This document shows, in pieces, positions 10,486 through 29,110 of a stretch of DNA of 64,000 bases. Source of the stretch: Ostreococcus lucimarinus (taxonomy: Eukaryota); NCBI GenBank assembly GCA_000092065.1, contig CP000581.1; one strand, 5' to 3'. The notes beneath the pieces were generated by a model that was not told the origin of the DNA, ran no database searches, and saw nothing but the letters and a program-made list of their open reading frames with translations. Position 1 is the stretch's first letter. Each line of letters begins with the position of its first letter. A program made the position numbers and the translations under genes.

Positions 10486-12186
10486 ATGCCGCGCGCGAGG
10501 GCGAAAGACGGCGCGCGCGTCGTTCGCGCGATTTCGACGGCGCGCGACGCGGCGCGCGACGCGCGCGCGCGCGCGCGCGATGGACGACGATGGACGTCGA
10601 CGCGCGCGCGCGCGGGCGCGGAGGCGTCGACGTCGGCGCTCGGGAGCGGGCTGGACTTTCGAGCGCTGACGCGCGCGGGCGAGACGGCGAGCGCGGCGTA
10701 CGCGAGGCTGTGCGCCGAGGGCGTCGTGCGCGAAGACGAGGCGCAGAGACACGCGCTGAAAGCGCTGGACGTCGTCGGAGGGCGCGCGAGAGGGACGCGG
10801 CGGAGGGAAGGACTCGGCGCGGTGGGCGCGGGGGGAGGGTGGTCGTTCGCGGGGTGGCTCGGCGGCGACGCGAGCGCGAAACGCGAGGTCGAAGCCGGAG
10901 AGGGGGGGGCGTACGTGCACGGGGGACCGGGAAGCGGGAAAACGTTTGTGATGGATTTGTTTTACGCCACGCTGGACGGTGAACACGGCGTGGAGAAGCG
11001 TCGGGAGCATTTTCACTCGTTTATGCTCGAGACGCACACGCAGTTGCACAAGTTGAAGGACTCGGATAAGAACATGGACACCGTGGGTCAATACGCGTCG
11101 GCGTTGGCGAGAAAGATGCGCGTGCTGTGCTTGGACGAGTTTCAAATCGTCGACGTCGCGGACGCGATGATCATCAAGCGTCTGCTGGAAAATCTCTGGG
11201 CCGAGGGCGTGCTGGTGGTGACGACGAGCAACAGACATCCGGATGAGTTGTACAAGAATGGGTTGAATCGCGCGCAGTTTTTGCCGTGCATAGCGGAAAT
11301 TAAAAGACGATGCATCGTGCACGAGATGGCGAGCGATCGCGATTATCGTCTCACTGGACGCGCACGGAGTGAGGAGGACCAAGCGATGTGGAAATCCGGC
11401 GGCGACGAAGCCGAGCGCGAGCGTTGGCTGGTCGAACGCTTGCAAGTGCTCGCGGGCGAGCGCTCGTTCAAACCGCTACAAATAGCGATCGGTGGACGCC
11501 TCGTGCACGTCCGGCGCGCGGGTGGTGGCATCGCTCACTTTGATTTTAACGAGTTGTGTGACAGCGCTCTGGGCGCCGCCGATTACACCGCCCTCGCGAG
11601 CATCTTCAACTCCATAGGCGTCGGGCACGTGCCGACTTTGAGCTCAGACAGACTCGATCTGGTGCGAAGATTCATTACATTCATAGATGTCATGTACGAG
11701 CATAAGGTGAAACTCCTCGTGAGTGCGGATGCGTCGCCTGAAGAGCTGTACCGCGCGAGCGCCGGCGACGGATCTCGCAAAAACGCCGCCCGCGACGAAG
11801 AGTTCGCGTGGGACCGCGCAGCGAGTCGACTCGCGGAGATGCAGTCGAAAGAGTTTCAAGAGGCACCTTGGAATCCAAAAGCTGGGAGCTGGTTGCTCGA
11901 ACAGGCGCGCGTCACCGAAGTCGTTCCAGCGCAGGTTCTGCGCTCCTTGTGGCAACGCTACGACCGCAACCGAGACAACGTTTTGGACGAAACCGAGCTC
12001 GAGTGTTTGGTGGGCGACTTGAACCAGCTGCGAAGTGGACACAGGCACGTGTCCGAAGAACAATTAGACGCCGTGATGTCCATCGTGCGTGGATCGAAAA
12101 ATTTGCGCGAAAATCGATACATGACGTACGAAGAATTCACGCGATACGGGCACGCCGCCATGCTCGAATGCATGCGCGACCGCTAG
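10486..12186 (+). CDS. AFG1/LACE1 (ZapE)-family ATPase with a C-terminal EF-hand
   Basis: Walker A GGPGSGKTFVMDLFY, Walker B RVLCLDEFQIVD and the VTTSNRHPDELY block are typical of AFG1. The C-terminal extension carries a canonical EF-hand loop, DRNRDNVLDETEL. The real start may be an internal ATG such as 10590. Confidence 0.8.
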   Translation: MPRARAKDGARVVRAISTARDAARDARARARDGRRWTSTRARAGAEASTSALGSGLDFRALTRAGETASAAYARLCAEGVVREDEAQRHALKALDVVGGRARGTRRREGLGAVGAGGGWSFAGWLGGDASAKREVEAGEGGAYVHGGPGSGKTFVMDLFYATLDGEHGVEKRREHFHSFMLETHTQLHKLKDSDKNMDTVGQYASALARKMRVLCLDEFQIVDVADAMIIKRLLENLWAEGVLVVTTSNRHPDELYKNGLNRAQFLPCIAEIKRRCIVHEMASDRDYRLTGRARSEEDQAMWKSGGDEAERERWLVERLQVLAGERSFKPLQIAIGGRLVHVRRAGGGIAHFDFNELCDSALGAADYTALASIFNSIGVGHVPTLSSDRLDLVRRFITFIDVMYEHKVKLLVSADASPEELYRASAGDGSRKNAARDEEFAWDRAASRLAEMQSKEFQEAPWNPKAGSWLLEQARVTEVVPAQVLRSLWQRYDRNRDNVLDETELECLVGDLNQLRSGHRHVSEEQLDAVMSIVRGSKNLRENRYMTYEEFTRYGHAAMLECMRDR

Positions 12187-15279: not shown

Positions 15280-18200
15280 TTACTTGTCCTCGTTCGACAT
15301 GTCGAGGAGCTGCGTGAAATAATCCACCGCGCTGGCTGCGGTTTTCTTCGTTTCGTTGGTGTTTGTCTTGCGCGTGATGACGCTGCGCAGGGATGAAATG
15401 GTCATCGATTTGACGACGTCTTCGGCTTCGACGTCTTGAACCGAAATACCCATGGACTCGGCGTATTTGGATTTGAGATCGTCGAGTTCGCCGGCCACTT
15501 TTTTGGACTCTTCGAGAACCTTGAGTTCTTCATCGCTCAGGTTCACAAAGTCGCGGAGACGCTTTTTGGCCTCGTCGAGGGAAACGCGGAGGCGCTTGAT
15601 CTCCACGGCGTACTCATCGCGTTCGGTTGCCGTCTGCTCAAACGAACGTTCGAGCGCAAGTCTGTCGGCCTCGAGCTGCTTTTCTCGATCGGAGACGCTA
15701 AGCCTGAGGCTCTTTTCGGCTTTAGACTTTTCTTCCGCGACGATTTTGAGCGCTTTTTCGCGACTCGCTTTGAGCGCCGCGTCCTTCGCCGCGATGGTGT
15801 CTCTCAGTCGTGCCTCGTACGATTCGCGAAGCTTGGCGATATCGATCTCGCTTCGCTCGCGAAGTTCCTTGAGACTCGCTTGAGTTTTGGCTATCTCTTC
15901 GGCGTAAGCGTCAGCGTCGCCACGTCTGCCGGTCGAGGTCGCAACTTCCTTCTCAACAATCTTTTCAACCTCAACAATCTTCTCGACGACCTTCTCGACT
16001 ATTTGCGGCGGTCCGCCTGTTTGCCCGGCGCGCTTTTCCGCGTCGCGCACAGCCCGTTGAAGCGTTTCAACTTCTTGACGGAAGTCTACGACTAGCTTAT
16101 CAAACTGCGCGTTGAATTTGGCTTCAATTTCCAGATCACGATCGTTGAGCATGTTTTCAAAGTTGGCAATTTTGGCCTTGAGTTTATCATTCGCCTTCTT
16201 CGCCGTCGCACGAAGCGCCGCTTCAGATTTTGAGCGTTCGGCGGCGGCGATGGCCAATTGATCGCGCAACGCCTTCTTCGCTGTGGTTTCCGCCTCTCTC
16301 AGAGCCGCGATATATTCACGCTGTGCCGCGAGCTTGGCACTCTCGGTGAGCTTCTTTGCCGCCGCGATTTCAGTGCGCAAAGTCTTTTCCATACGGTCGC
16401 GCTCCGCCTTCGCAGCTTCCATCGCGGACGCCAACTTCTGGTTCGCAATCTTCTCAGAGTTTGCGAGCTGATTTTCGAGTGTAGAAACTTTGGATTCCAA
16501 AGCCTTAAGCTTTGATTCGGATTCGATGCGCATTGCTTTCTCTACCGCCTCGATTTCAGCCTTTTGTGCCGTCTTAAATTCGCTCAGTTTCTTCACGGCG
16601 GCTTCAAGATCACGCTCGAGCGTCGCAACCTTGCTAGGCGATTGAGCGGGCTTGCTCTTCTGTATGACTGACTCCGTCGGTGTAGACGCGTTCGTCTCCT
16701 TCATCGAGCGATTCGACGCGCCGAAGAGACGTTCAAAGAGCGAAGGCGCGGAAGTCTTCGCCGCTTCTTCAGCCGCCAACGCCGCTTCTTCAGCCGCCAA
16801 CGCCGCATCTTCCTTCGCTTTCGTAGCTTCTTCCTTCGCTGCAAGCAACTGATCGCGCAAAGTAACCATTTCACTTTGCGCCGCACGAAGCTTACGCTCG
16901 GCGTCTTCGCGCGCGGCTCGTTCAGCTGCAACCTTGCCTTTGTTGAATTCAAAGAGAGGGCGCTGAACGGAGGTTTCCGATACCACCTTCGATGACGAAG
17001 ATTGCTTCTTTGCGACATCGAGTTCATCAGTGAGTGCACCAACGCGTTGCTCATAAAAGGCGATCTTCTCTGCGAGAGTTACTTGCTCGGATTTCAATCT
17101 TCGCTCGAAGTCTTCCTTCATCAAAAGCATCGAACGGGACCATTTCGCCTCCGCTTCGGCAAACTCGGCCTGAACACTCGCAAGTCGATACTGGACATTC
17201 TCCATTTTCTTCGCCTGTTCCGCATAATCCCTGTGCGCACGTCTGATTTGCTTCTCAAGTTCGCGTTCGCGTGACTTGAGTTGCTTGTTCATTAGCTGCG
17301 CCGAGTCTCGTACGCGTTCTTTGAAGTCTTCGCGCAACGCGGCGAGAAGAACTTCAACCTCTCGCGTGTGCTCCTTGCTTTCTTGAATCTTTTGGTTGAA
17401 TTCTAAAGTAGCATCAGCCATTGTTTGAGCGACAGCGCGAACGATCTCGTCATTGTGCTTTTCCTTCATCGCGTTCATTTCAGAAATTCTAGAACCCAAC
17501 ATCGCCTGACTATTTTGATACTTGACCAAAATATCTGCTCGTTCGGATTCAAGACTGCGCACATTCGCTTCGTCGGCCTGAACACTCGCAAGTCGATACT
17601 GGACATTCTCCATTTTCTTCGCCTGTTCCGCATAATCCCTGTGCGCACGTCTGATTTGCTTCTCAAGTTCGCGTTCGCGTGACTTGAGTTGCTTGTTCAT
17701 TAGCTGCGCCGAGTCTCGCACGCGTTCTTTGAAGTCTTCGCGCAACGCGGCGAGAAGAACTTCAACCTCTCGCGTGTGCTCCTTGCTTTCTTGAATCTTT
17801 TGGTTGAATTCTAAAGTAGCATCAGCCGTTGTTTGAGCGACAGCGCGAACGATCTCGTCATTGTGCTTTTCCTTCATCGCGTTCATTTCAGAAATTCTAG
17901 AACCCAACATCGCCTGACTATTTTGATACTTGACCAAAATATCTGCTCGTTCGGATTCAAGACTGCGCACATTCGCTTCGTACGACTTTGCTTGATCTTT
18001 CCAAGCAACGGAGTCGAATTGCCATGCGTCACGTTCTTGCTCCAACTTGGCCATTTTACGAAGCATTTGTGCGACGGCAGCAGTCATCTCGTCATCCTCA
18101 TCAAACGACGCCGAGGCGTTTTCGGTAAGTCGCGCCAAATCGAGCGCATACTTTGTCTCTGCGTCGGCAACCGCACGTTCTCGCTCTTCGTTCAGGCGCG

Positions 18201-21200
18201 CCACGGTTACCGCGAGCTGTTCTTGAGCATCAGCTTGGAGCTTGGCGATGGCTGCGACGGTATCATCGCCGCTTTTAAGCTTGGACTCAAGCTCGGAGAT
18301 GCGTTGCTTGTACTCTTTGACAGTGGTTTCACTCTCGGCGGCAAAAGTAGAAGATGCGTTACTGACGGCGTCCTTCAACTCTGCTTTGAGTGCCGCGATT
18401 TCATTCGCTGAAGCTGAACTTTTTTGTTCAAACTCCAATGTCAGACGCGATATTTCCTCACGAAGCTTGACTTCGCGCTCTTGCGCATCGCGTGCTTCAG
18501 TCTCTGCAGCTGATAACAGCACAGTTTGATCTTTGATCTGAGCATTTACAGCATCAAGGGACGCGTCCTGTCCCTGGGAAGCGCCGATGATGCTAGCAAA
18601 AATTCCACCTCGATCGCCTTTCGCCTTGTCCAAAACAGCCTTGTATTTCTCTTCAGCCTTTTGCATGCCCTTGCGAGCTTTTTCTAGTTCCTTTTCTAGT
18701 CGTCGCTCGGAATCCAGCTTCTCAGACTGTAGTCTTGTCGTGACCGATAGCACATCTTGATCACGCTCAGCGCGGACGGCTTTGATTTGCGCTTCCAAGT
18801 CGAAGATATGCTTTTCCACGTCCGGGCTGCTCCTCTTAGCTTGCGTAGCGAACTCCGCTTCAAGTTTCTCAAGCTTTTCTTGAAGCGCGTCGCGCTGCTT
18901 CTTGAGACGCTTGACTTCGCCAGTGCTTCCCTCGAACTTGTACGTGACAGATTGGGGAAGGGTGTACTTAACTACACTCTTCTCACGCTTTTGCTGTTGT
19001 TTGCGTTTAAACGCATCCAACTCCTTGCGAGCCTCAGTGACTTCAAGCCTGAGCTCTGCTTCCGTCTCCGTCGCCGTGCGCTTGAGAGTCTTATTGAGCT
19101 TCTTTATCGTCGATTCGTAACCTTCGGAAACCTCTTCTAGTTGAAGTTCCAGTCGCTTGACTGTCGCCTCGTACTCCGCGGCGATTTCATCAGCCTGTAT
19201 CTTCGCAGACCTCTCAACTTCTTCGAGTTTTGCTTTCCACAAGTCCTCAGCTTGCTTTACCTTTGTAGTTTCATCGCTCGCGAGAGAAGTTTTCATGGCG
19301 TTTTGCAGGGTCTCGATCTCGAGAGTCTGAGCCGTGATCAGCGCCTCTTTTTCTTCTTGGAAGAGCTTTGACTCCTGCGATACGCGGTCATCCGCTTCCG
19401 ACTTGACCAAAGCAACCAACGCTACTCGATCAGCCTCCGCTGACGCCTGAATTTCAGCGACGGCTTGGATAAGCTCTCGTTCGGCGCTTTCGTTGGCATC
19501 GGCGAGTTGCTTCTTCAGAGCTGCAACTTGGTCATCAATCGTAGCGGTCTCTGTGTCCGTTTTCGACGTCGATTTCATGTTCGCGATAGTTTGCTCGTAG
19601 AGCCGCTTGGACTTTTGCATCTCGTCAAGTTGGGATTCAAGGCGTGTGACTTGCGCTTGAAGCGCGTCGCGCTCCTTCTCTAGCGATGCATCTACCTTGT
19701 TGCCAGTAAACTTATATGTCACTGTTTGAGGCAGCGTGTACTTGATGCCACCCTTACTTTTTTGCTTGAGGTCTTCGAGGTCCTTTTTCGTCGATTCGAC
19801 TCGTTTTCTAAGTTCACTTTCGCTAGACTTAGATGCTGCGAGCTGCGCTTTAATTTTCTTCATCTCATCGTCGTCACTCGACACCCACGCAGTAGAAGAT
19901 TGAAGCGCATCAATTTTACCTTGATACTCTTGCTTCAACCGATCAATCTGTGCATCCTTGGCTGCTTCGACCTCACGAATCTTCTGTTCCCAGAAAATAG
20001 ATGATTGAGCCTCGGCAGTGGCTACCTCAGCCGTGAACTCAACCATAGCGTCTGCGGACTGTTTTATCGCTTCGTTTCGCATCATCGCATACAGCGCGCG
20101 GCGCTCGCCAGCGCTTGAACGAGACGAAGCGTCGCGTTGCGCCAGCTCGGAAGACGCAAAGGCCTGAATACTAGCGACGGCCTCGACGAGATGCTCCTCG
20201 GCGATGGCTTTTTGCTCTTGCAAACGCCACGACTGCTCAGACAGCTGCTTCTTGAGATCCAGGATCATGGCATCCTTCGCCGCTGACTCGTCGCTCCCAG
20301 CGGTCGTCGCCGCGGGCACGGCGGGCGCCGCGCGTGCAGACGCCTTGAGTGACTCAATCTTCGCGTCATACTCTCGCTTGGTCTTCTGCATTTCCGTCAG
20401 CTGCGACTCGAGCGCGCTGATCTTGGCCTGCTGAGCCTTCATCAGCTTGTCGTCCGTGGAACCGCCCTCGAATGTGTACTTGATAAACTGCGGAAGTGTG
20501 TACTTCACACCGTTCTTCGACGCAGTCTTGAGCGACTGAAGTTCGGCTTTCGCCGCGTCGACTTGACCTCGGAGTTCGAGTTCGATCGACGAGCGCTTGG
20601 AGAGCTGCGCCTGCAGGTCGGACACGACGCTCGAGAGACCATCACTACCAGACGCCTTGGACATTGATGCCTTGAGCTCCTCGAGTTCACGCAGCGATGC
20701 GTCGAGCTGCGCCTTCTCGGCCGCCGCCGCCGCTTGCAGCTTGGCATTATCAGCGAGGATCGTCGCGACAGCCGCCTCAACTTGCTCTTCGGCATCGTTT
20801 TCGGCATCCTGCAGCTTCTTGTTGAGGGCGTCGATTTCGGCGCTTCTGTCAGAAACACCGGTCGTAGTGCTCGCCTTACTGGCCGCCCGGACTCGTTCGA
20901 TCTCTTCGTTGTGTGCCTTCTTCAGAGCAACCACGCGCTGCTCAAACTGAATCTGCGCGTCACGAATGGCGTCGTTCACTTGAGCGCTCGTGTCCACAGG
21001 TGAACCGGACGACGCGCGCAATGACGCCTCCAGCTGTTCGTTCTCAGCCTTGAGCTCAGCGACGGCCTCGACGAGCTGCTCCTCGGCGATGGCTTTTTGC
21101 TCTTGCAAACGCCACGACTGCTCAGACAGCTGCTTCTTGAGATCCAGGATCATGGCATCCTTCGCCGCTGACTCGTCGCTCCCAGCGGTCGTCGCCGCGG

Positions 21201-24200
21201 GCACGGCGGGCGCCGCGCGTGCAGACGCCTTGAGTGACTCAATCTTCGCGTCATACTCTCGCTTGGTCTTCTGCATTTCCGTCAGCTGCGACTCGAGCGC
21301 GCTGATCTTGGCCTGCTGAGCCTTCATCAGCTTGTCGTCCGTGGAACCGCCCTCGAATGTGTACTTGATAAACTGCGGAAGTGTGTACTTCACACCGTTC
21401 TTCGACGCAGTCTTGAGCGACTGAAGTTCGGCTTTCGCCGCGTCGACTTGACCTCGGAGTTCGAGTTCGATCGACGAGCGCTTGGAGAGCTGCGCCTGCA
21501 GGTCGGACACGACGCTCGAGAGACCATCACTACCAGACGCCTTGGACATTGATGCCTTGAGCTCCTCGAGTTCACGCAGCGATGCGTCGAGCTGCGCCTT
21601 CTCGGCCGCCGCCGCCGCTTGCAGCTTGGCATTATCAGCGAGGATCGTCGCGACAGCCGCCTCAACTTGCTCTTCGGCATCGTTTTCGGCATCCTGCAGC
21701 TTCTTGTTGAGGGCGTCGATTTCGGCGCTTCTGTCAGAAACACCGGTCGTAGTGCTCGCCTTACTGGCCGCCCGGACTCGTTCGATCTCTTCGTTGTGTG
21801 CCTTCTTCAGAGCAACCACGCGCTGCTCAAACTGAATCTGCGCGTCACGAATGGCGTCGTTCACTTGAGCGCTCGTGTCCACAGGTGAACCGGACGACGC
21901 GCGCAATGACGCCTCCAGCTGTTCGTTCTCAGCCTTGAGCTCAGCGACGGCCTCGACGAGCTGCTCCTCGGCGATGGCTTTTTGCTCTTGCAAACGCCAC
22001 GACTGCTCAGACAGCTGCTTCTTGAGATCCAGGATCATGGCATCCTTCGCCGCTGACTCGTCGCTCCCAGCGGTCGTCGCCGCGGGCACGGCGGGCGCCG
22101 CGCGTGCAGACGCCTTGAGTGACTCAATCTTCGCGTCATACTCTCGCTTGGTCTTCTGCATTTCCGTCAGCTGCGACTCGAGCGCGCTGATCTTGGCCTC
22201 TAGCGCGTTAACATTCGCAGTGTTTTCCGGTGTTTTTCTAGACGTGTCTTCGAATTTGTAAGTAATGCTTTCCGGCGAAGTGTACTTGACGGTCTGCTGT
22301 GCGGATGCTATCTGATTTCGGAGATCACGCTCAACTTCGGTTCGCTCGCGCAGCTGCCGCTGGAGCTCCGTAATCTCCGCCGACACGTCCACGCCCGGTG
22401 TGTCTGATTTGATTAAAGCCTTCAGCTCTTCGAGCTCGCACAGGGACGCGTCGAGCTGCGACTTTGCAGCGTCAACCGCGGCTTGCAGCCGGTCTTTATC
22501 AGCAACGATTTCCGCTACCGCGCGCTTTACTGCCTCTTCGCGTTCTTTTTGCGCATCTTCCAACTGCTTATTGAGCGCGGCGACCTGCGCGTCCACATCT
22601 TTGCTACTACTCGAGCTGGATGAGGCTTGTAAATCCGCAATCTTTTGTTCGTACGACTGCCTGAGCTGCTTCAGCTGTGCATCCTTCATGAGCTCAACGT
22701 CCTTGATCTTTTTCTCCCAGTATGCAGGAGATTCCACAGCGTGGGTGCTGGCCTTACTGGCCGCCCGGACTCGTTCGATCTCTTCGTTGTGCGCCTTCTT
22801 CAGAGCAACCACGCGCTGCTCAAACTGAATCTGCGCGTCACGAATGGCGTCGTTCAGCTGAACTCTTGCTTCGGCAGTTGAGCTGGACGATGCGCGCAAT
22901 GAAGCCTCCAGCTGTTCGTTCTCAGCCTTGAGCTCAGCGACGGCCTCGACGAGCTGCTCCTCGGCAATTGCCATGTTCTCAGACAGCTGCTTCTTGAGAT
23001 CTATGATTTCTTCGTTAGCGTCAAACTGGTTCAATCTCTTAACCGCCTCGGCGCGCATCATTTTGTACATCGCGTTACGTTCTCCAGTTGTGGATTTAAG
23101 AGCTGACTCGAGTTGTACCTTGCTAGCTTCAGCAAGCGACTGGATTTCAGCAACCGCTCGAACGAGCATATCATCATACATCTCCTTGAGCGTAGTTACA
23201 TCCTGTTTTACCGCGTCCTGCTCTGAAGCAAGATTCGATTTAACGTTGATGCGCTCGGCTTCAAACTGTGCGAGAAGCTGAGCTTTTGACGCTTCACTCT
23301 CGTTCAACTTGGAGATAGCGTCACGTGCGCGATCCTCCGCTTGCGTGACTCTTCTATCCGACTCTCTACGTGCGTCTTCTAATGCTGTCGCGTGAGCAGC
23401 GGCTGTAGTCTGTATCGCCATCTGATGCGCCTGTTCGAGGGCTTTTATTTTGGCTGGTGCGTCATCCTTCGTCGCGCTCCTTTTAAGGCGCTCTAGCTCT
23501 TCGTTGTGCGCCTTCTTCAGAGCAACCACACGCTGCTCAAACTGGATCTGCGCGTCACGAATGGCGTCGTTCATCTTCTTGCTACTCGAAACTTCGCTTA
23601 TGGCAACTTCACTTTGAAGCCGCGTCAAAGTTCGCTCGCTCGCTTTGCGCATCTCAGAGTCGAACATCGACTTGAGCGCACGACGCTCGCCCGCAACTCC
23701 ACGCACAGCTTCGTCACGAACTGCGTCAACGTCCACGTCGTTTCGCATTTCGACCGGAGATACCGCGACCTGAGATTTCTTTGAAACCTTGACTCGTTCG
23801 ATCTCTTCGTTGTGCGCCTTCTTCAGAGCAACCACGCGCTGCTCAAAGTTAAGCTGCTCCTCACGGAGTGCCGCGTTAAATTGATCGACGCTCAGCGCGC
23901 TCTGGCTCGGCTTTGAGGCGTTACTCGCCTTGACTCGTTCGATCTCTTCGTTGTGCGCCTTCTTCAGAGCAACCACGCGCTGCTCAAAGTTAAGCTGCTC
24001 CTCACGGAGTGCCGCGTTAAATTGATCGACGCTCAGCGCGCTCTGGCTCGGCTTTGAGGCGTTACTCGCCTTGACTCGTTCGATCTCTTCGTTGTGCGCC
24101 TTCTTCAGAGCAACCACGCGCTGCTCAAATTTAAGCTGCTCCTCACGGAGTGCCGCGTTGAATTGATCGACGCTCAGCGCGCTCTGGCTCGGCTTTGAGG

Positions 24201-26307
24201 CGTTACTCGCCTTGACTCGTTCGATCTCTTCGCTGTGCGCCTTCTTCAGAGCAACCACGCGCTGTTCAAACTGGATCTGCGCGTCACGAATGGCATCGTT
24301 CGCTTGAGCGCTTACATCGACAACCGATGTGACTGGATCGGCGCGCTCAACTGGAGCGCCGCGCTCGATGTTGCGTCCAGGACTGGCCTTGTTCATCTCC
24401 GAATCAAGAAGCGCCTTTAGCGCTCGTCGCTCCCCAGCGGCACCGCGCATCGCGCTGTCGTACTTGGCCACGAGAGAGCTAATTTCAACTTCAGCCTCGG
24501 CACGTATTTCGGCAATCTTCGAAAGGAACTCGTCCTGAGTCGTCGAGTCACTGTCTTGAATCAGTCCCGCCACCGGCTCCCGTACTTTTGAGAGCGTGGC
24601 GGCAAAATCGGCCCGCTCTTTCACAATTCTCTCGCTATAAGACGCACAAATCGCTTTCAGTTGATCTTCGAGGAATGACAGGCGTTCTCCAGAGGTGACC
24701 TTCGCAAGAGCCAATTCTGACCGAAGCGTCGCCAGGTGCATGCGCTGCAGGTCACGTGATGCGCGATACTTGCTTGCTTCACTTCTTCCAAGTTCGCGTT
24801 CAGCGCGAATCAAGCCACGCGCGGCTCTAATTTCGATTTCATGACGCGTCGCCATAGATTTGTTCACCTCTTTCGCTTCGTGCAAAGCATCCTCAGCAAT
24901 ATTCAGCGCTTTCTCAAGCCTCTCGATGCTGCCCTTCAGCGTAACCTCTTGCGCGTGGAAGGCAGCTTCGTTTGCTTTGATGGCGGTTTCGTGCTCCTCT
25001 TTCATCTTTACGAGCACACGTTGAAGTTCTTCGGTGCTTTGTCCTCCCGCGCCGGCGCTTGAAAGCGAATCGATTTGCACATCCTTCATGTGGCGCTTGA
25101 AGTCGTCGTTCAGAGTCTTGAGGTTATCATTCTTCTCCTTCTTCATGGCGCCGAGCTTTTCGATTTCGGTTTCAAACTCCAGAATCATTGACTGCCGCAG
25201 TACTTCTAAGCGTCGCACCGCGCTACTATCGCTTTCCAAAGGCTGAGCAAGACTGGGCAAACGTTCCAATTTGGATCGCACTTTTTGCACGTCAACGCCA
25301 GAGCGAGAGATACCGAAGCCGATTGCCGCAGCGGCAACTGCAGCCGCAGACGCGATACCAGCTACCGCAGCGGTTTTTGCAACGACTGGCGGAAGCGCAT
25401 TATTGTGACGCAAAGTCATCGAGGTCGCATTTACCGCTGGTAAATTTTGAGCGAACGGGGCGACTGTTGCCGTTTTCACCACATTTTTTGGACGCTCAGC
25501 CACGATCGAGGTCGTCACCTGCGGCACAGTCGGCGACGCCGCGCGCCGATCGGCTGAAAAACTGTGTTTACCTCCGATAAGAGCCACGGCCGTCGCGATA
25601 CCACCGTAAATGAGCTTGGTCTCGGTATCGAATCTCTCAGTCGCGCGCATCATCGTCGTCGCGAGGGATGTCTGTTGTATTTTTTTCCGCACGATGGACG
25701 TCGTTTCTACCGTCTTCTTCACAATACTCGTCGTGGCCTTCATCCCAAGCGCCACGACTTCGTTCGCATCGCTCGATCGTTCGCATCGTTCGCATCGTTC
25801 GCATCGTTCGCATCGCTCGCATCCCTCGCCATCCTCATCGTCGTGCTCGTGCTCGTGCGATTCTTCGTACTCTTCGTACGCCTCGTCCGACATCCACGAG
25901 AACGACGCGAACCCGGGCGCGCTGTCGAACCCAGCCATACCAACTCTCCCCGCCCCCGGTCGCCGAACTTCACGCTCTTCGTCCTCGTCTTCCGCGCCCC
26001 CCCCGACCTCGAGCTCGAGCACTATCTCGTCCACGAGCTTGTATCCGCGAAAACTCGCCGTCCCGACGCCGTTTTCAAACATCGCGCGTCCGATCTCTCC
26101 CGGCTCGTCCCCTCGTCCCGCGCACGTCACCACGCGCCCGACTCGCATCGACGCCCTCCCGCGCGCGCTCGCCCGCGCGTCGCTCGCGCTCGCCCCTCGC
26201 GTCGCGTCGCCGCGCCGCTTCCCTCCCTCTCGCGTCGTCTCCCGCCGCCCCAGCGCGAGCGCGCCGCGCGCGCGCGTCGACATCACCCCGCGATCGACGA
26301 TCGCCAT
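15280..26307 (-). CDS. giant (3675 aa) coiled-coil protein with internal tandem repeats; function unknown
   Basis: Single uninterrupted 11-kb ORF. The composition is heptad-like, rich in E/K/A/L/Q. There are several families of exact in-frame DNA repeats. The non-coiled motif VKYTLPQ(F/T/S)(I/V)xYxFEG recurs 5 times. The N-terminus has HEHEHDDEDGEG-CERCERCERCERCER. The C-terminus is ...DYFTQLLDMSNEDK. Confidence 0.8.
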   Translation of the reverse strand: MAIVDRGVMSTRARGALALGRRETTREGGKRRGDATRGASASDARASARGRASMRVGRVVTCAGRGDEPGEIGRAMFENGVGTASFRGYKLVDEIVLELEVGGGAEDEDEEREVRRPGAGRVGMAGFDSAPGFASFSWMSDEAYEEYEESHEHEHDDEDGEGCERCERCERCERCERSSDANEVVALGMKATTSIVKKTVETTSIVRKKIQQTSLATTMMRATERFDTETKLIYGGIATAVALIGGKHSFSADRRAASPTVPQVTTSIVAERPKNVVKTATVAPFAQNLPAVNATSMTLRHNNALPPVVAKTAAVAGIASAAAVAAAAIGFGISRSGVDVQKVRSKLERLPSLAQPLESDSSAVRRLEVLRQSMILEFETEIEKLGAMKKEKNDNLKTLNDDFKRHMKDVQIDSLSSAGAGGQSTEELQRVLVKMKEEHETAIKANEAAFHAQEVTLKGSIERLEKALNIAEDALHEAKEVNKSMATRHEIEIRAARGLIRAERELGRSEASKYRASRDLQRMHLATLRSELALAKVTSGERLSFLEDQLKAICASYSERIVKERADFAATLSKVREPVAGLIQDSDSTTQDEFLSKIAEIRAEAEVEISSLVAKYDSAMRGAAGERRALKALLDSEMNKASPGRNIERGAPVERADPVTSVVDVSAQANDAIRDAQIQFEQRVVALKKAHSEEIERVKASNASKPSQSALSVDQFNAALREEQLKFEQRVVALKKAHNEEIERVKASNASKPSQSALSVDQFNAALREEQLNFEQRVVALKKAHNEEIERVKASNASKPSQSALSVDQFNAALREEQLNFEQRVVALKKAHNEEIERVKVSKKSQVAVSPVEMRNDVDVDAVRDEAVRGVAGERRALKSMFDSEMRKASERTLTRLQSEVAISEVSSSKKMNDAIRDAQIQFEQRVVALKKAHNEELERLKRSATKDDAPAKIKALEQAHQMAIQTTAAAHATALEDARRESDRRVTQAEDRARDAISKLNESEASKAQLLAQFEAERINVKSNLASEQDAVKQDVTTLKEMYDDMLVRAVAEIQSLAEASKVQLESALKSTTGERNAMYKMMRAEAVKRLNQFDANEEIIDLKKQLSENMAIAEEQLVEAVAELKAENEQLEASLRASSSSTAEARVQLNDAIRDAQIQFEQRVVALKKAHNEEIERVRAASKASTHAVESPAYWEKKIKDVELMKDAQLKQLRQSYEQKIADLQASSSSSSSKDVDAQVAALNKQLEDAQKEREEAVKRAVAEIVADKDRLQAAVDAAKSQLDASLCELEELKALIKSDTPGVDVSAEITELQRQLRERTEVERDLRNQIASAQQTVKYTSPESITYKFEDTSRKTPENTANVNALEAKISALESQLTEMQKTKREYDAKIESLKASARAAPAVPAATTAGSDESAAKDAMILDLKKQLSEQSWRLQEQKAIAEEQLVEAVAELKAENEQLEASLRASSGSPVDTSAQVNDAIRDAQIQFEQRVVALKKAHNEEIERVRAASKASTTTGVSDRSAEIDALNKKLQDAENDAEEQVEAAVATILADNAKLQAAAAAEKAQLDASLRELEELKASMSKASGSDGLSSVVSDLQAQLSKRSSIELELRGQVDAAKAELQSLKTASKNGVKYTLPQFIKYTFEGGSTDDKLMKAQQAKISALESQLTEMQKTKREYDAKIESLKASARAAPAVPAATTAGSDESAAKDAMILDLKKQLSEQSWRLQEQKAIAEEQLVEAVAELKAENEQLEASLRASSGSPVDTSAQVNDAIRDAQIQFEQRVVALKKAHNEEIERVRAASKASTTTGVSDRSAEIDALNKKLQDAENDAEEQVEAAVATILADNAKLQAAAAAEKAQLDASLRELEELKASMSKASGSDGLSSVVSDLQAQLSKRSSIELELRGQVDAAKAELQSLKTASKNGVKYTLPQFIKYTFEGGSTDDKLMKAQQAKISALESQLTEMQKTKREYDAKIESLKASARAAPAVPAATTAGSDESAAKDAMILDLKKQLSEQSWRLQEQKAIAEEHLVEAVASIQAFASSELAQRDASSRSSAGERRALYAMMRNEAIKQSADAMVEFTAEVATAEAQSSIFWEQKIREVEAAKDAQIDRLKQEYQGKIDALQSSTAWVSSDDDEMKKIKAQLAASKSSESELRKRVESTKKDLEDLKQKSKGGIKYTLPQTVTYKFTGNKVDASLEKERDALQAQVTRLESQLDEMQKSKRLYEQTIANMKSTSKTDTETATIDDQVAALKKQLADANESAERELIQAVAEIQASAEADRVALVALVKSEADDRVSQESKLFQEEKEALITAQTLEIETLQNAMKTSLASDETTKVKQAEDLWKAKLEEVERSAKIQADEIAAEYEATVKRLELQLEEVSEGYESTIKKLNKTLKRTATETEAELRLEVTEARKELDAFKRKQQQKREKSVVKYTLPQSVTYKFEGSTGEVKRLKKQRDALQEKLEKLEAEFATQAKRSSPDVEKHIFDLEAQIKAVRAERDQDVLSVTTRLQSEKLDSERRLEKELEKARKGMQKAEEKYKAVLDKAKGDRGGIFASIIGASQGQDASLDAVNAQIKDQTVLLSAAETEARDAQEREVKLREEISRLTLEFEQKSSASANEIAALKAELKDAVSNASSTFAAESETTVKEYKQRISELESKLKSGDDTVAAIAKLQADAQEQLAVTVARLNEERERAVADAETKYALDLARLTENASASFDEDDEMTAAVAQMLRKMAKLEQERDAWQFDSVAWKDQAKSYEANVRSLESERADILVKYQNSQAMLGSRISEMNAMKEKHNDEIVRAVAQTTADATLEFNQKIQESKEHTREVEVLLAALREDFKERVRDSAQLMNKQLKSRERELEKQIRRAHRDYAEQAKKMENVQYRLASVQADEANVRSLESERADILVKYQNSQAMLGSRISEMNAMKEKHNDEIVRAVAQTMADATLEFNQKIQESKEHTREVEVLLAALREDFKERVRDSAQLMNKQLKSRERELEKQIRRAHRDYAEQAKKMENVQYRLASVQAEFAEAEAKWSRSMLLMKEDFERRLKSEQVTLAEKIAFYEQRVGALTDELDVAKKQSSSSKVVSETSVQRPLFEFNKGKVAAERAAREDAERKLRAAQSEMVTLRDQLLAAKEEATKAKEDAALAAEEAALAAEEAAKTSAPSLFERLFGASNRSMKETNASTPTESVIQKSKPAQSPSKVATLERDLEAAVKKLSEFKTAQKAEIEAVEKAMRIESESKLKALESKVSTLENQLANSEKIANQKLASAMEAAKAERDRMEKTLRTEIAAAKKLTESAKLAAQREYIAALREAETTAKKALRDQLAIAAAERSKSEAALRATAKKANDKLKAKIANFENMLNDRDLEIEAKFNAQFDKLVVDFRQEVETLQRAVRDAEKRAGQTGGPPQIVEKVVEKIVEVEKIVEKEVATSTGRRGDADAYAEEIAKTQASLKELRERSEIDIAKLRESYEARLRDTIAAKDAALKASREKALKIVAEEKSKAEKSLRLSVSDREKQLEADRLALERSFEQTATERDEYAVEIKRLRVSLDEAKKRLRDFVNLSDEELKVLEESKKVAGELDDLKSKYAESMGISVQDVEAEDVVKSMTISSLRSVITRKTNTNETKKTAASAVDYFTQLLDMSNEDK
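17165..17980. repeat. 408-bp (136-aa) tandem duplication, 2 copies, ~99% identical, in frame inside the giant gene
   Basis: Copy 1 starts at 17165 and copy 2 at 17573, with 2-3 mismatches. Duplicated ORFs appear in the track at 17002/17425 and 17425/17833. Confidence 0.85.
20175..22199. repeat. 885-bp (295-aa) tandem repeat, 2.3 copies, ~100% identical, in frame inside the giant gene
   Basis: Copies start at about 20175, 21060 and 21945. Identical six-frame ORFs are offset by exactly 885 bp (20505/21390, 20597/21482, 20734/21619, 20990/21875). Confidence 0.9.
23789..24290. repeat. 141-bp (47-aa) tandem repeat, ~3.5 copies, inside the giant gene
   Basis: The unit ttgactcgttcgatctcttcgttgtgcgcc... 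recurs at 23789, 23930, 24071 and 24212. It encodes KASNASKPSQSALSVDQFNAALREEQL(K/N)FEQRVVALKKAHNEEIERV. Confidence 0.85.
25760..25825. repeat. 9-bp coding microsatellite (cgttcgcat)n encoding (Cys-Glu-Arg)5 on the minus strand
   Basis: cgttcgcat x5 read directly from the sequence. On the gene strand it gives GEGCERCERCERCERCERSS near the N-terminus of the giant protein. Confidence 0.85.
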
Positions 26308-26797
26308 CCTCGCGCGCGCGCGCCCGGCGTCTCCCCGTATCGCGCGCGTCCGACGACGCCACTAATCCAAAACCCGACCGATCGCGTCCCGCGCGCGCGC
26401 GTCCTCGTCGCGTCGCGTCGCTCCGATCGCCCGCGTCGCTCGAATCGCGCTCGCGCGCGTCGGCGTCGACGCGCGTCGATCACTGCGCCGCGCGGCGGCG
26501 CCGCGCGCGACGTCCGCGGTCGATCCGCGTCGCGCGGTCGGTCGGTCGGTCGCCGTTTTATCGCGGCGCGCGCGCGCGCGTCACATGGCGTTCGAGTCGG
26601 TACACTACGACGTCCGCGCGCGTCGTCGTCGCCCCTCGCGCGACGGGTCCGATCGCGACGTCGTCGTCGTCGTCGACGCGCGATCGAGGGTCGACGTCGG
26701 CGCGCGATCGACGCCGCGCGTTTCGCGTCGCGCGCGGGCGCGGCGATCGCGCGCCGACGCGCGATAGGGTCGCGGCGGCGCGAGACGACGACGCGCG

Positions 26798-29110
26798 ATG
26801 GCGACGACGACGACGATGCGCGTCGCGGACGCGAGAGGCGCGATGACGCGAGGCGGCGCGCGATGCGCGCGACGCGCGACGGCGCGACGCGCGACGCGCG
26901 CGACGGCGCGACGCGCGACGGTGGCGAACGCGGGGCAGACGATGTACGATAAAATCATCGACGACCACCGCGTGCGAACGCAGGACGACGGGACGCTGCT
27001 GCTGTACATCGATCGACACATGATACACGAGGTGACGTCGCCGCAAGCGTTCGAGGGGCTGCGAACGGCGGGACGGGCGGTGCGACGACCGGATAACACG
27101 CTGGCGACGGTGGATCACAACGTGCCCACGAGCGACCGGAGCGGGTTCGAGAGCGCGGAGACGTTCATCAAGGAGATGGACTCTCGCGTGCAGGTGTTGC
27201 AGCTGGAGGAGAACGTGGAGGAGTTTGGGGTGACGTATTTCGGGATGGACGATAAGAGACAGGGGATCGTGCACATCATCGGACCGGAACAGGGGTTCAC
27301 GCTGCCGGGGACGACGGTGGTGTGCGGGGACTCGCACACGGCGACGCACGGCGCGTTCGGGGCGCTGGCGTTCGGAATCGGGACGAGCGAGGTCGAACAC
27401 GTGCTCGCGACGCAGACGTTGTTGCAAAAGCCGTCGAAGAATATGCGAATCACGATCGATGGGAAGCTCGGAGATGGGGTGACGAGTAAGGATATTATTT
27501 TGCACATCATCGGCGTCATCGGCACGGCGGGCGGAAACGGCTCCGTGATTGAATTCGCGGGCGAAGCCATTCGCTCGCTCTCCATGGAGGCGCGAATGAG
27601 TATTTGTAACATGGCCATTGAAGGTGGGGCGCGCGCGGGTATGATTGCCCCGGATGAGATCACGTTCGAGTACCTCAAGGGTCGTCCGATGTCGCCTCGA
27701 GGGGAGACGTGGAATCGCGCGGTCGAGTACTGGAAGTCTCTCGCCTCCGACGCGGATTCCAAGTACGATCGCGAGATCGTTATTCCGGCGTCCGATATCG
27801 AACCCACGGTGACTTGGGGGACGTCCCCGCAAGATGTCGTTGGGATTTCGGGCATCGTTCCCGATCCGAAGGACTTCGACGAGGCGCGCGGCAAGTCGAT
27901 GCAACGCGCGCTCGATTACATGGGTCTGACCCCGGGCACTAAGATGCAAGATGTCGTCGTCGACAAGGTGTTCGTCGGCTCGTGCACGAACGGTCGCATC
28001 GAAGACGTGCGCGCGGTCGCCGCGGTGGCCAAAGGTAGAAAGGTTGCCGACAACGTGTACGCCATGGTCGTCCCGGGTTCGGGCATCGTCAAGGAGCAAG
28101 CCGAAGCCGAAGGCTTGGACGTCATCCTCAAGGAAGCTGGCTTCGACTGGCGCGAGCCCGGTTGCTCGATGTGTTTGGCAATGAACCCGGATAAGTTGCT
28201 TCCGGGCGAACGCTGCGCGTCAACCTCCAACCGTAACTTTGAAGGTCGTCAAGGCAACGGCGGTCGCACGCACTTGATGTCGCCGGCGATGGCTGCCGCC
28301 GCGGCCATCACGGGTAAGCTTTGCGACGTCCGCACCCTCGGCTCTGGCGCTGTCTTGACCGGCGAAGATGCTCCGGGTAAGCTCGAAAGCAAGGACTTCT
28401 TATCGGACGCCTTGGTCACTTCCCCGCCGCCGCAAAAGAAGGACAACGGTCCGGCGGGCGCGGGCGGCATGGCCAAGTTTACCACCTTGAAGGGTGTAGC
28501 CGCGGCCATGGAACTTCAGAACATCGACACCGATATGATCATCCCCAAGCAATTCTTGAAGACGATCAAGCGCACCGGCCTCGGAGTCTCTGCGTTTTAC
28601 GAAATGCGTTACGACGAGCAAGGCGTCGAACGCCCGGATTTCGTGTTGAACAACGAGCCGTACCGCAACGCCTCCATTTTGGTCGCCGGTAACAATTTTG
28701 GTTGCGGGTCTTCTCGTGAGCACGCGCCGTGGGCGATTAATGACTTCGGCATTCGATGCATCATCTCCACCGCCTTTGCCGACATCTTCTTCAACAACTG
28801 CTTCAAGAACGCCATGTTGCCAATCGTTCTCGACGAAGCCACCGTGAACACGCTCATGGCGGACGCCAACGCCAAGCAAGAGCTCGAAATCGACTTGCCG
28901 AACCAAGTCGTCATTCGATCAAACGGCGAGAAGATTCCATTCGAAGTCGACGAGTTCCGCAAGCACTGCTTGATCAACGGCTTGGACGACATCGGCTTGA
29001 CGATGCAGCAAGACGCCGACATCGCCGCGTTCGAGGCCAAGCGCACCGAAAACTTCCCGTGGCTCAACGGCGCCGGCTACGTCCAAGGCAGCGCCACCCC
29101 GGCGCGTTAA
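26798..29110 (+). CDS. 3-isopropylmalate dehydratase, fused large (LeuC) and small (LeuD) subunits, with an N-terminal presequence
   Basis: LeuC region: [11 protein letters not shown]...[18 protein letters not shown] and the aconitase-family Cys ligands (VCGDSHT, GSCTNGR, GCSMCL). LeuD-like C-terminal domain: [21 protein letters not shown]. The conserved core starts at ATG 26942. The preceding 48 codons (Arg/Ala/Thr-rich) look like an organellar transit peptide. Confidence 0.9.

Follow-up and report, generated by a model that had tools for sequence, protein, structure and literature searches.

A giant segmented helical protein, apparently restricted to Ostreococcus, with a putative organelle-targeting and membrane-anchoring N-terminus and a selected 15-residue motif

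A single-exon 11-kb gene of Ostreococcus lucimarinus encodes a giant, segmented α-helical protein that we tentatively interpret, at slightly less than even odds, as a genus-restricted, N-terminally membrane-anchored and probably organelle-targeted tether or scaffold. Ostreococcus is the smallest free-living eukaryote, with a cell of 0.8 µm, and serves as a model for minimal cell organization. Because the protein appears to be both genus-restricted and membrane-anchored, it is a reasonable candidate for a cell-organizing role: a conserved helical protein of 2000-3700 aa could span half of the cell if extended, and its strain-variable length provides a natural experiment. Even as an ordinary filler scaffold, it would add a well-characterized orphan family whose short motif is new and selectable.

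Results

An intact gene with positional orthologues in related genomes

The 64,000-nucleotide stretch of DNA analyzed here (contig CP000581.1, hereafter the window) contains the gene as a complete single-exon coding sequence at 15280..26307 on the minus strand, where all features described below also lie. The open reading frame list and translation give 3675 aa plus stop, uninterrupted from ATG to stop. The protein is collinear and conserved from end to end in related genomes, and this is, by sequence comparison, one real, intact and intron-free gene, as the initial annotation had proposed. An exact-sequence look-up of the 3675-aa product matched no record. The LeuCD protein of the mamiellophyte O. 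lucimarinus CCE9901 is contained letter for letter in the neighboring open reading frame, which places the window in this or an identical strain. The window's gene order LeuCD, giant gene, AAA ATPase, AFG1, PPK recurs in L006/L021 and L007/L040 (our handles), and positional orthologues flanked by the same two neighbor genes are present in at least four other Ostreococcus-like lineages. The orthologues range in length from 2033 to 3348 aa, and each carries between one and four KYTLPQ-type motifs. Giant proteins of different lineages are collinear at 45-52% identity and the neighboring LeuCD is ~90% identical; by this measure the giant protein is fast-evolving.

Two peptide patterns, one of them KFNAQFD, recovered 33 metagenome loci of the family, all with a GC content of 0.54-0.64. 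A module profile run against 1.84 billion representative proteins, the kind of motif search that had been suggested at the outset, returned six family members and three weaker matches, which we judge spurious from inspection of their sequences, leaving the giant-gene family only. Word-indexed searches with aa 2100-2560 and aa 55-345 retrieved near-identical fragments only, and we discount their negatives because known orthologues, recovered afterwards through synteny, had escaped them. In a synteny check of Micromonas pusilla CCMP1545, LeuCD was adjoined by no large gene, and viral contigs yielded no relative. Overall, the family appears to be restricted to Ostreococcus, with an exhaustive search covering the motif module only and word-limited tools covering the remainder.

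The view that the protein belongs to no known family held up in Pfam, PDB sequence and Foldseek searches, all of which were without a match. Scanned as a whole against Pfam at E ≤ 1, the protein gave GHMP_kinases_C (E = 0.16) and nothing else, scans of the orthologues gave nothing above cut-off, and scans of each module copy gave sub-threshold coiled-coil families only, none over the motif. Dicer_dimer (E = 0.019) and DUF3287 (E = 0.0047) arose in one P0168 module, below cut-off, and were not reproduced in other copies. Sequence and profile searches of the PDB with the module and the N-terminus produced generic coiled-coil noise or nothing, and the fold search of the non-coiled module, likewise proposed earlier, yielded nothing better than E = 2.6 when an AlphaFold2 (AF2) module model was submitted to Foldseek.

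A presequence and hydrophobic segments precede the helical part

The first ~345 aa lie outside the helical rod: a presequence and a small conserved region are accompanied by a cluster of His and acidic residues and by one or two hydrophobic segments. The presequence (aa 1-62; 26122..26307) is rich in Arg, Ala, Ser, Thr and Gly, ends RVVTC↓A and is a putative organelle-targeting peptide. Every lineage has such a stretch of ~45-70 aa, unconserved in sequence, alike in composition and ending in (R)AVRV.GA, VVTCA or VSQA. Close strains differ here by an in-frame insertion of 8 residues, and in the L021 lineage the presequence runs to the conserved region without any Met between. Composition alone is weak evidence, since GC-rich DNA gives an Arg/Ala/Gly-rich peptide by default; the presequence also resembles those of the neighbors LeuCD and PPK.

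Downstream, a region at aa 66-150 (25858..26112), including the near-invariant PGAGRVGMAGFDSxPGFASFxWMSExxYExYE, is one of the three stretches in which conservation over four lineages is highest. It is followed by a His/Asp/Glu cluster, HEHEHDDED, and then (CER)5 encoded by a 9-bp repeat (25774..25860, from TRF and the lineages; TRF reports 9 bp x 7.2 at 25760-25823). The His/acid character is common to all lineages, and the CER repeat is absent from L001, L002 and L014. The N-terminal region has no Pfam match and no PDB match, and an AF2 model of the N-terminal 320 aa was unusable (pLDDT 40, pTM 0.16).

The best transmembrane candidate by Kyte-Doolittle analysis is the Ala/Gly-rich segment aa 312-335, TAAVAGIASAAAVAAAAIGFGISR (25303..25374), the sole segment whose 19-residue mean exceeds 1.6 (2.05). 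An Ala/Gly/Val-rich equivalent occurs in every lineage and is followed by a basic cluster (SRTRRR, SQRRRR). Conservation and hydropathy also single out a weakly hydrophobic segment at aa 229-247, ETKLIYGGIATAVALIGGK (25567..25623), with a 19-residue mean below 1.2, which AF2 draws as a helix with low confidence; here D(T/N)ETKxIYAGIA is kept, and its D, E, T, K, Y and G do not vary. The presequence and the hydrophobic anchor region, both missed when the protein was first described as almost pure coiled coil, suggest that the protein is membrane-attached and probably organelle-targeted.

The helical part is segmented rather than a uniform heptad coiled coil

In each of six sub-regions the hydrophobic periodicity is strongest at 3.60-3.65, and autocorrelation signals appear at lags 7, 11, 18, 22, 25 and 29 (0.12 at lag 11, 0.10 at lags 18 and 7, and 0.08 at lag 29). 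A tropomyosin control run through the same script gave a periodicity of 3.50 and a lag-7 autocorrelation of 0.38. Large hydrophobics make up ~24% of residues and about one-third of residues are charged. A crude scan placed ~35 S/T/G/P-rich breaks along the helical part: within aa 636-2460 helical stretches are only 28-106 aa long, and those of 170-448 aa are confined to the C-terminal third. A periodicity of 3.6 combined with numerous flexible breaks may indicate helical bundles or beads on a string, not one long rod. The initial annotation as almost pure heptad coiled coil is thus not upheld by the periodicity relative to the control, by the ~35 breaks or by the ~345 N-terminal residues outside the rod.

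Conservation is concentrated in islands. The strongest in the helical part, from lineage comparison, is aa 491-520 (IRAARGLIRAERELGRSEASKYRAxRDL; 24748..24837), with 77% invariant columns over four lineages against an average of 28%. Toward the C-terminus, aa 3381-3420, DLEIEAKFNAQFDKLVVDFRQEVE (16048..16167), the source of the KFNAQFD pattern, has 70% invariant columns, and a short conserved motif, AVDYFTQLLDMS (aa 3660-3671; 15295..15330), stands just after a Ser/Thr/Lys-rich linker. Its VDYF(K/Q)QLLDMS core is kept in the P0168, P0169 and L029 lineages; P0172 has GLFKRFFESS instead.

A 15-residue motif under purifying selection

Five copies of a KYTLPQ-type motif are found in the protein: VKYTSPESITYKFED at aa 1340-1354 (22246..22290), VKYTLPQFIKYTFEG at aa 1639-1653 (21349..21393) and again at aa 1934-1948 (20464..20508), IKYTLPQTVTYKFTG at aa 2188-2202 (19702..19746) and VKYTLPQSVTYKFEG at aa 2446-2460 (18928..18972). 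The originally reported fivefold recurrence is correct and the motif is far beyond chance; copy 2 lies within a perfect 885-bp repeat and copy 3 is its recent duplicate. Because the copies at aa 1639 and 1934 stem from one tandem duplication, there are four distinct versions. Copy 5 was identified by orthologue comparison as present in all lineages, its orthologous positions reading VRYSMPESVTYKFQG in L021, VKYTLPESITYKFEG in P0169/P0186, IQQTLPESVTYTFKG in L029 and, in degenerate form, KRTLAESITYSFKD in P0172. This copy is ancestral, the remaining ones having arisen by unit duplication. A fixed number of motifs is not essential, as the number varies from 1 to 7 and one lineage carries the degenerate version.

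Across eight copies from the window and L006, the Y, P, Y and F of the motif are invariant; once P0169 and the degenerate P0172 copy bring the set to ten, invariance is limited to the second Y and the F, with the P close to it. Codon comparison of the copies at aa 2188 and 2446 revealed 8 synonymous and 3 non-synonymous differences within the motif, versus 0 synonymous and 14 non-synonymous in the flanks. Copy 1 differs from the other copies at 4-7 synonymous and 4-7 non-synonymous codons, versus 0-2 and 13-15, respectively, in the flanks. Overall, purifying selection acts on KYTLPQxVTYKFEG, a non-helical element of 15 residues that other lineages keep in their orthologues. LC8, LIR/AIM, sortase and SH3-type short linear motifs were considered and rejected by eye, as its conserved residues depart from their consensus sequences.

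Could the fivefold recurrence be a mere by-product of repeat amplification, and the motif itself be without function? Of the five copies, two are recent duplicates identical to each other, copy number ranges from 1 to 7, and one lineage carries a degenerate copy, all of which fit that explanation. We consider it improbable in view of the older copies, which retain the peptide although codons and flanks have diverged, and of the ancestral copy, recognizable in all lineages despite 45-52% overall protein identity.

The motif is predicted to sit between two helices in a conserved ~100-aa module. In the AF2 model of the copy-4 module, 18 residues (59-76) are non-helical between helices 2-58 and 77-139, with pLDDT below 50 over the motif and no strands drawn. 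Structure prediction of the presumed hairpin thus supported a non-helical element between helices, but gave no strands and low confidence, so that the β-hairpin idea rests on the residue pattern, namely the alternating hydrophobic residues of the two halves (V-K-Y-T-L / V-T-Y-K-F). Helices of 97 and 185 aa adjoin the ancestral copy, an arrangement more consistent with an interruption of a rod than with a small domain. Two further parts of the initial annotation stand in reduced form: all motifs except the one at aa 1340, four in total, come after a turn that is K-rich or of SKxG type, and the motifs account for only five of the ~35 breaks in the helix.

Tandem duplication of helical super-repeats

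Repeat comparison identified an 885-bp (295-aa) tandem super-repeat at 20173..22242, with two perfect copies (0 mismatches in 885 bp; perfect identity over ~2 kb) and an older copy at ~89%. A 408-bp unit (136 aa), present twice in tandem, spans aa 2777-3048 (17165..17981; 99% identity in TRF), with 3 mismatches in 408 bp. TRF and repeat search together define a 141-bp x 3.4 array with a 47-aa unit (23787..24270), which holds three modules with the core FEQRVVALKKAH. This second module, initially said to recur nine or more times, was counted eight times, as five NDAIRDAQIQ-type and three NAALREEQL-type copies, the array contributing three.

Motif modules number 3, 4, 5 or 7 across related assemblies. 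The FIKYTF-type unit has two copies in the window and 0, 1 or 4 in independent assemblies, and because these assemblies differ from one another, copy-number variation of the 885-bp unit is probably real. The perfect repeat in the window might nevertheless be an assembly artifact, and repeats may be collapsed in short-read assemblies. The giant protein thus appears to grow and shrink through helical super-repeats, with units of 47, 136 and 295 aa, that duplicate in tandem.

Discussion

In the tether or scaffold model that we tentatively favor, the Arg/Ala/Ser-rich presequence would direct the giant protein to an organelle (plastid or mitochondrion), where the hydrophobic segment aa 312-335 would anchor it in a membrane and the weaker conserved segment aa 229-247 may add to anchoring. 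The ~3300-residue helical part would project from the positively charged membrane side as a dimeric or bundled tether or scaffold, extending up to ~0.49 µm into a 0.8-µm cell if fully stretched out. As an amphipathic β-hairpin, the motif could provide a registration or cross-linking point between chains, or a hinge, and the C-terminal VDYFxQLLDMS could act as a distal docking end. A more specific version, which we regard as a long shot, makes the protein an Ostreococcus-specific organelle-membrane tether or ruler whose length changes in 295-aa steps through the 885-bp repeat, each step adding ~44 nm if the unit is fully helical. KYTLPQ hairpins would zip adjacent chains into a lattice that positions or partitions plastid contents (the starch granule or the nucleoid of the single plastid) or single-copy organelles at division, substituting for machinery such as MFP1/MRC, which chlorophytes appear to lack.

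The N-terminal features could also be accommodated at a different membrane, if the protein were a nuclear-envelope- or ER-anchored nucleoskeletal or sheet-spacing protein, acting like NUP-1 of trypanosomes, NMCP of plants or kinectin/p180, with an Arg-rich N-terminus that stays uncleaved. A hydrophobic anchor close to the N-terminus would suit this role, presequence composition could in part reflect GC-rich sequence, and a giant lineage-specific coiled coil with near-perfect long repeats resembles NUP-1 (PMC3313915). We nonetheless consider this location unlikely: all lineages carry a freely evolving presequence of ~45-70 aa whose composition is organelle-type and whose end resembles (V/I)-x-(A/C)↓A, it is like those of neighboring organellar enzymes, and neither an NLS-like element nor a known nuclear-envelope domain was detected. 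A peripheral association, in which many amphipathic helices of 35-65 aa (~3.6-3.67 periodicity) cover the surface of a membrane, a lipid body or a starch granule much as apolipoproteins or perilipins do, would account for the 3.60-3.65 periodicity, the strong lag-11 signal and the short helices with flexible S/T/G/P linkers in aa 636-2460. It is quite unlikely given ~24% large hydrophobics, which would form the narrow stripe typical for coiled coils or bundles, the ~1/3 of charged residues and the unbroken helical stretches of 170-448 aa in the C-terminal third.

Pfam includes rootletin, SF-assemblin and alveolin-repeat families. The architecture had first been likened to rootletin and striated fibers; as a cytoskeletal fiber component akin to rootletin or SF-assemblin, the protein would reside in the cytosol, and its segmented coiled coil would bundle into a striated fiber. 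The giant protein is indeed long, segmented and α-helical, with a periodicity of ~3.6 that is numerically near the 29/8 = 3.625 of SF-assemblin, but lag 29 is unremarkable (0.08 versus 0.12 at lag 11), the Pfam searches at E ≤ 1 matched no such family, and hence neither of these two, and a presequence and hydrophobic segments recur at the N-terminus in all lineages. The Ostreococcus body is non-flagellar, and flagellar-like structures are absent (PMC5508029), which makes a rootlet role unlikely. Whole-cell cryo-tomography of O. tauri found one or two microtubules per cell, with actin-thin filaments unresolved, and the sections of that study used here describe no fiber system (PMC1939878). Against this evidence, we regard the fiber reading as very unlikely.

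Several known systems share individual features with the proposed tether or scaffold. SF-assemblin is a ~30 kDa protein with a 29-residue pattern (four heptads plus a skip residue), equal to 3.625 per hydrophobic position. Like rootletin it consists of segmented α-helical rods, and its 3.625 is near the 3.60-3.65 measured here; the giant protein differs in being more than 10-fold larger and in its lack of a Pfam match, its N-terminal membrane features and its host without flagella. At the level of the ~100-aa module, the order helix, β-hairpin, helix is that of prefoldin, the hairpin in the module being read from the residue pattern. Foldseek matches of the module model were mostly helical coiled-coil proteins, all insignificant, several of them (FliJ, the Rad50 coiled coil and prefoldin) being antiparallel two-helix hairpins. 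Prefoldin_2 scored E = 0.02 and 15.3 bits versus a cut-off of 27.6, with one helix covered, and prefoldin chains gave E = 6-8 in Foldseek and E = 3.3 in the PDB profile search. Alveolins were also considered and rejected, as extended EKIVEVP-type arrays are lacking: the protein has a single 23-aa stretch, PPQIVEKVVEKIVEVEKIVEKEV (aa 3433-3455), which is absent from the L021 lineage, and Pfam gave no match.

Kinectin, p180 and golgins combine a single hydrophobic anchor with a very long helical projection. They are anchored at the extreme N- or C-terminus without an organelle-type presequence, unlike the giant protein, and Pfam and PDB searches detected no sequence similarity to them. NUP-1 of Trypanosoma brucei is built largely from long near-identical tandem repeats and, to our knowledge, has no N-terminal presequence or hydrophobic anchor. 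Described as a very large lineage-specific coiled-coil protein (PMC3313915), it resembles the giant protein in being lineage-specific, very large and repeat-built, but is nucleoskeletal, and no sequence relationship was detected between the two.

In plant MFP1, a plastid transit peptide at the N-terminus is followed by a short transmembrane domain and then by a long C-terminal coiled coil, the last thought to face the stroma and gather partner proteins (PMC10801857). MFP1 was reportedly not found in the Chlorophyta explored (bioRxiv 10.1101/2024.10.03.616402). The giant protein is ~5x longer and adds the conserved N-terminal region and the His/acid cluster, and its sequence has no RR (twin-arginine) motif directly upstream of aa 229-247 or aa 312-335, in contrast to the twin-arginine (Tat) signal of MFP1 (PMC10801857). 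By description, the likeness, an architectural precedent for the tether model, lies in a presequence, a candidate hydrophobic anchor and a long C-terminal coiled coil that follow one another in the same order.

A conserved and fast-evolving gene

The ORF list and translation bear out a single uninterrupted giant gene on the minus strand (26307 to 15280), as the initial annotation had described, with a product of 3675 aa. It adjoins LeuCD, a fused LeuC/LeuD isopropylmalate dehydratase ORF (26798-29110). This ORF contains, unchanged, the full sequence of XP_001415394.1 from Ostreococcus lucimarinus CCE9901, so the window belongs to that strain or to an identical one. The neighbours in the window form a compact eukaryotic set (PPK1, AFG1 + EF-hand, double-AAA ATPase, ClpB, ZIP, MutS and Npa1/URB1), each encoded by a single ORF. 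PPK1, a bacterial-type polyphosphate kinase uncommon in eukaryotes (7475-10282, minus strand), has four of four domains matched, with E values between 1e-30 and 1e-70, and carries an Arg/Ala-rich presequence. In the AFG1-like ATPase (10486-12186, plus strand), the fused C-terminal EF-hand pair matches EF-hand_7 at E = 1.3e-6, slightly short of the Pfam cut-off; related contigs also possess this fusion. The window's second-largest ORF, for the nucleolar pre-ribosomal protein Npa1/URB1 (56855-63397, plus strand, 2180 aa), is likewise uninterrupted and is an ordinary gene. Where the giant gene begins, its GC-rich 5′ end and the adjoining intergenic DNA are overlain by long antisense or overlapping ORFs, 250-460 aa in length (25564-26952, 25610-26365 and 25668-26846 on the plus strand, among others); these are most likely stop-poor frames expected at 65-68% GC, not genes.

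The order AAA ATPase, giant gene, LeuCD is kept in contigs whose LeuCD is ~90% identical to that of the window, and the orthologue P0172 lies in the same neighbourhood in two further contigs (L007 and L008). Scanning JGI metagenomes with a four-lineage alignment yielded 33 loci, all with a GC content of 0.54-0.64, among them full-length ORFs of 2043, 2045, 2139, 2385, 2868, 2898, 3210, 3220 and 3348 aa; the gene of related locus L006 encodes 2329-2385 aa, and P0172 (2033 aa) and P0186 (2930 aa) are further complete orthologues, for an overall span of 2033-3348 aa. Orthologues are collinear end to end, yet only 45-52% identical. Judged from these alignments, the giant gene is real, conserved and fast-evolving, the last relative to the neighbouring enzyme LeuCD. 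In related contigs L001, L002 and L003 (ENA assemblies ERZ10646569 and ERZ10646527), a ~12.2 kb version with seven motif copies and four FIKYTF-type units contains several frame changes, so that it is called as 4-5 separate genes, the first break being common to L001 and L002; these breaks are either errors of sequencing or genuine disruptions.

When 1.84 billion representative proteins were compared, with no word index, to a 105-column profile of the motif-bearing module, nine matched. Six of these belong to the giant-gene family, and no source gives any of the six a name. The other three, repetitive and missing the motif, were taken as spurious on sequence inspection. A synteny check in Micromonas pusilla revealed no giant gene adjoining LeuCD, and the viral contigs searched contained no relative. 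Word-indexed searches missed clearly existing orthologues, so their silence beyond Ostreococcus proves little. As far as profile matches can show, the module is restricted to the genus Ostreococcus, and the same is suggested for the whole protein. A Pfam scan at E ≤ 1 gave only GHMP_kinases_C (E = 0.16), judged meaningless, and within the reach of these searches the protein represents a family not described before.

Growth by tandem duplication

Repeat comparison shows that the gene grows by tandem duplication and that much of the recurrence of motif and modules is of recent tandem origin. An 885-bp unit (295 aa) is duplicated in tandem with 0 mismatches and perfect identity over ~2 kb, alongside an older third copy at ~89% identity. 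Downstream of this repeat and of a 141-bp x 3.4 array (47-aa unit) lies a 408-bp x 2 duplication (136-aa unit). The 141-bp array generates three of the eight FEQRV modules; this second module, previously counted at nine or more, occurs exactly eight times around the core FEQRVVALKKAH, five times as the NDAIRDAQIQ-type and three as the NAALREEQL-type. Window-by-window self-comparison further resolved aa 600-2520 into an old super-repeat of five ~250-300-aa units, each with a motif near its end. In strains close to that of the window, the FIKYTF-type 885-bp unit occurs 0, 1, 2 or 4 times, and motifs per gene number 1, 3, 3-4, 5 or 7 across lineages and assemblies. Some of these assemblies may have collapsed repeats, and L001-L003 have the frame breaks noted above.

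A selected motif that breaks the helix

The motif, [VI]KYT[LS]P[QE]x[VI][TK]Y[KT]Fxx, does occur five times, at aa 1340, 1639, 1934, 2188 and 2446, with the copies at 1639 and 1934 being one motif counted twice because both lie within the perfect 885-bp duplication. Conservation extends to a module of ~100 aa, in which a helix bearing an E-L-R signature precedes the motif and one with KQRDALQxKxxxLExQL follows it. Among eight module copies from two lineages, Y3, P6, Y11 and F13 are invariant and the flanks have diverged; in a ten-copy alignment that adds P0169 and a degenerate P0172 copy, invariance is limited to the second Tyr and to the Phe, the Pro being nearly invariant. The aa 2446 copy is recognisable in every lineage (as VRYSMPESVTYKFQG, VKYTLPESITYKFEG, IQQTLPESVTYTFKG or KRTLAESITYSFKD) and is therefore considered ancestral.

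Old paralogous copies differ mostly synonymously within the motif. Between the copies at aa 2188 and 2446, the motif has 8 synonymous and 3 non-synonymous differences versus 0 and 14 in the adjacent 15 codons, the flank comparison being ungapped and hence rough. This contrast indicates that the motif peptide is under purifying selection. AlphaFold2 modelling of a 140-aa module from a 10-sequence alignment placed helices at 2-58 and 77-139 around a non-helical 59-76 that corresponds to the motif (motif pLDDT < 50, mean pLDDT 69, pTM 0.33). Foldseek comparison of this model with the PDB gave a best E of 2.6; FliJ, the Rad50 coiled coil and prefoldin, which were among the matches, are antiparallel two-helix hairpins. 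From its alternating hydrophobics on two short halves with a Pro turn between (V-K-Y-T-L / P-Q-x / V-T-Y-K-F / x-G), we infer that the motif may form an amphipathic beta-hairpin. Overall, the codon comparison and model show a short non-helical element under selection.

The helical part had been described as almost pure heptad coiled coil, which its periodicity does not support: hydrophobicity peaks at 3.60-3.65 residues in every sub-region, and autocorrelation maxima at lags 7, 11, 18, 22, 25 and 29 correspond to a heptad/hendecad mix. The 3.5-residue signal lies ~nine standard deviations over shuffles. Tropomyosin, serving script validation only, gave a sharp 3.50 peak and a lag-7 autocorrelation of 0.38. 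A simple scan for S/T/G/P/N-rich stretches found 36 breaks, making the KYTLPQ motifs five of many interruptions; helical stretches measure only 28-106 aa within aa 636-2460 and 170-448 aa in the C-terminal third. Two conserved breaks share a hydrophobic-F-x-x-hydrophobic-F-G pattern, GGIFASIIGAS (18568-18630, aa ~2568-2576) and SLFERLFGAS (16708-16752, aa ~3189-3196), with counterparts FFSNMFGG, FFEQLFGV, FWSSVFKG and IFARMFGT in other lineages. Further conserved breaks or islands are PLFEFNKGK and GERRAL(K/Y)A. Near the C-terminus, PPQIVEKVVEKIVEVEKIVEKEV (15943-16011, aa 3433-3455) resembles the alveolin EKIVEVP sub-repeat and had no Pfam match; it is shorter in the P0169 lineage and absent from the L021/P0168 lineage.

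A presequence and a hydrophobic segment

The initial annotation had overlooked the N-terminus, where lineage comparison shows a presequence and hydrophobic segments. In every lineage the first ~45-70 aa are unconserved, with abundant Arg, Ala, Ser, Thr and Gly, and end in (R)AVRV.GA, VVTC|A or VSQA; they resemble the N-termini of probable organellar proteins encoded nearby, LeuCD and PPK among them. Translation must include the presequence, since the L021 lineage has no Met between it and the conserved region; an insertion of 8 residues, by which close strains differ in this part, keeps the frame. A near-invariant PGAGRVGMAGFDSxPGFASFxWMSExxYExYE follows, then a cluster of His, Asp and Glu and the weakly hydrophobic but conserved DTETKxIYAGIATAxALIxAK. 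Next come 60-80 aa of linker rich in Lys, Pro, Thr and Ser, a ~20-aa segment rich in Ala, Gly and Val, which is the sole one over a classical hydropathy threshold (value 2.05), a basic cluster and finally the helical part. AlphaFold2 of this region was unusable (pLDDT 40), and a PDB profile search with it found no match. At 25760-25823 (aa ~164-178), 7.2 copies of a 9-bp repeat encode CERCERCERCERCER with regularly spaced cysteines; in the close relatives L001 and L002 and in L014 its place is taken by acidic sequence of His, Asp and Glu, which identifies the repeat as a strain-variable coding microsatellite. The metagenome locus L029 (2139-aa orthologue) has two tandem copies of PGAGRVG.AGFD..PG.ASF.WMSEGEYEEYEDGHDHGHS, so this conserved element can also duplicate.

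Proposed role and comparison with known systems

We propose import of the protein into an organelle, or at minimum its insertion into a membrane. Residues 312-335 would hold it in the membrane, and a ~3300-residue helical tether or scaffold may project from this anchor, reaching at most ~0.49 µm if extended, inside a cell of 0.8 µm. The KYTLPQ motifs could set the register between chains or serve as hinges, and the conserved C-terminal VDYFxQLLDMS could be where the distal end docks. That the motif is a mere passenger of repeat amplification, as its spread within duplicated units might suggest, is improbable beside the codon evidence for selection.

The hydrophobic segment could also serve a nuclear-envelope or ER scaffold, an unlikely assignment when the organelle-like presequence is considered as well. 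An amphipathic surface coat, for which the 3.60-3.65 periodicity and the short helices of aa 636-2460 might speak, appears quite improbable next to the long helical stretches of the C-terminal third, and a cytosolic fibre protein, drawing on the helical part, very improbable beside the N-terminal presequence and hydrophobic segments. The suggested analogy to rootletin or striated fibres is unsupported, Ostreococcus being a 0.8 µm, non-flagellar cell without flagellar-like structures (PMC5508029). In whole-cell cryo-tomography of O. tauri, no more than one or two microtubules were resolved in each cell (PMC1939878).

The anchored organellar scaffold that we favour would be large relative to the Ostreococcus cell. 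Long helical scaffolds assembled from repeats are well known, and it is common for them to be confined to one lineage; the present protein has an unusual conserved motif together with non-canonical periodicity, a probable membrane anchor and strain-variable length. In architecture its closest precedent is MFP1 of plants, in which a transit peptide, Tat signal and short TM domain are joined to a long coiled coil in the stroma that nucleates sites of starch-granule initiation (PMC10801857). Chlorophytes reportedly lack both MFP1 and MRC (bioRxiv 10.1101/2024.10.03.616402). Because the giant protein has no twin-arginine motif, unlike MFP1 with its Tat signal, we treat MFP1 as an analogue rather than as its family.
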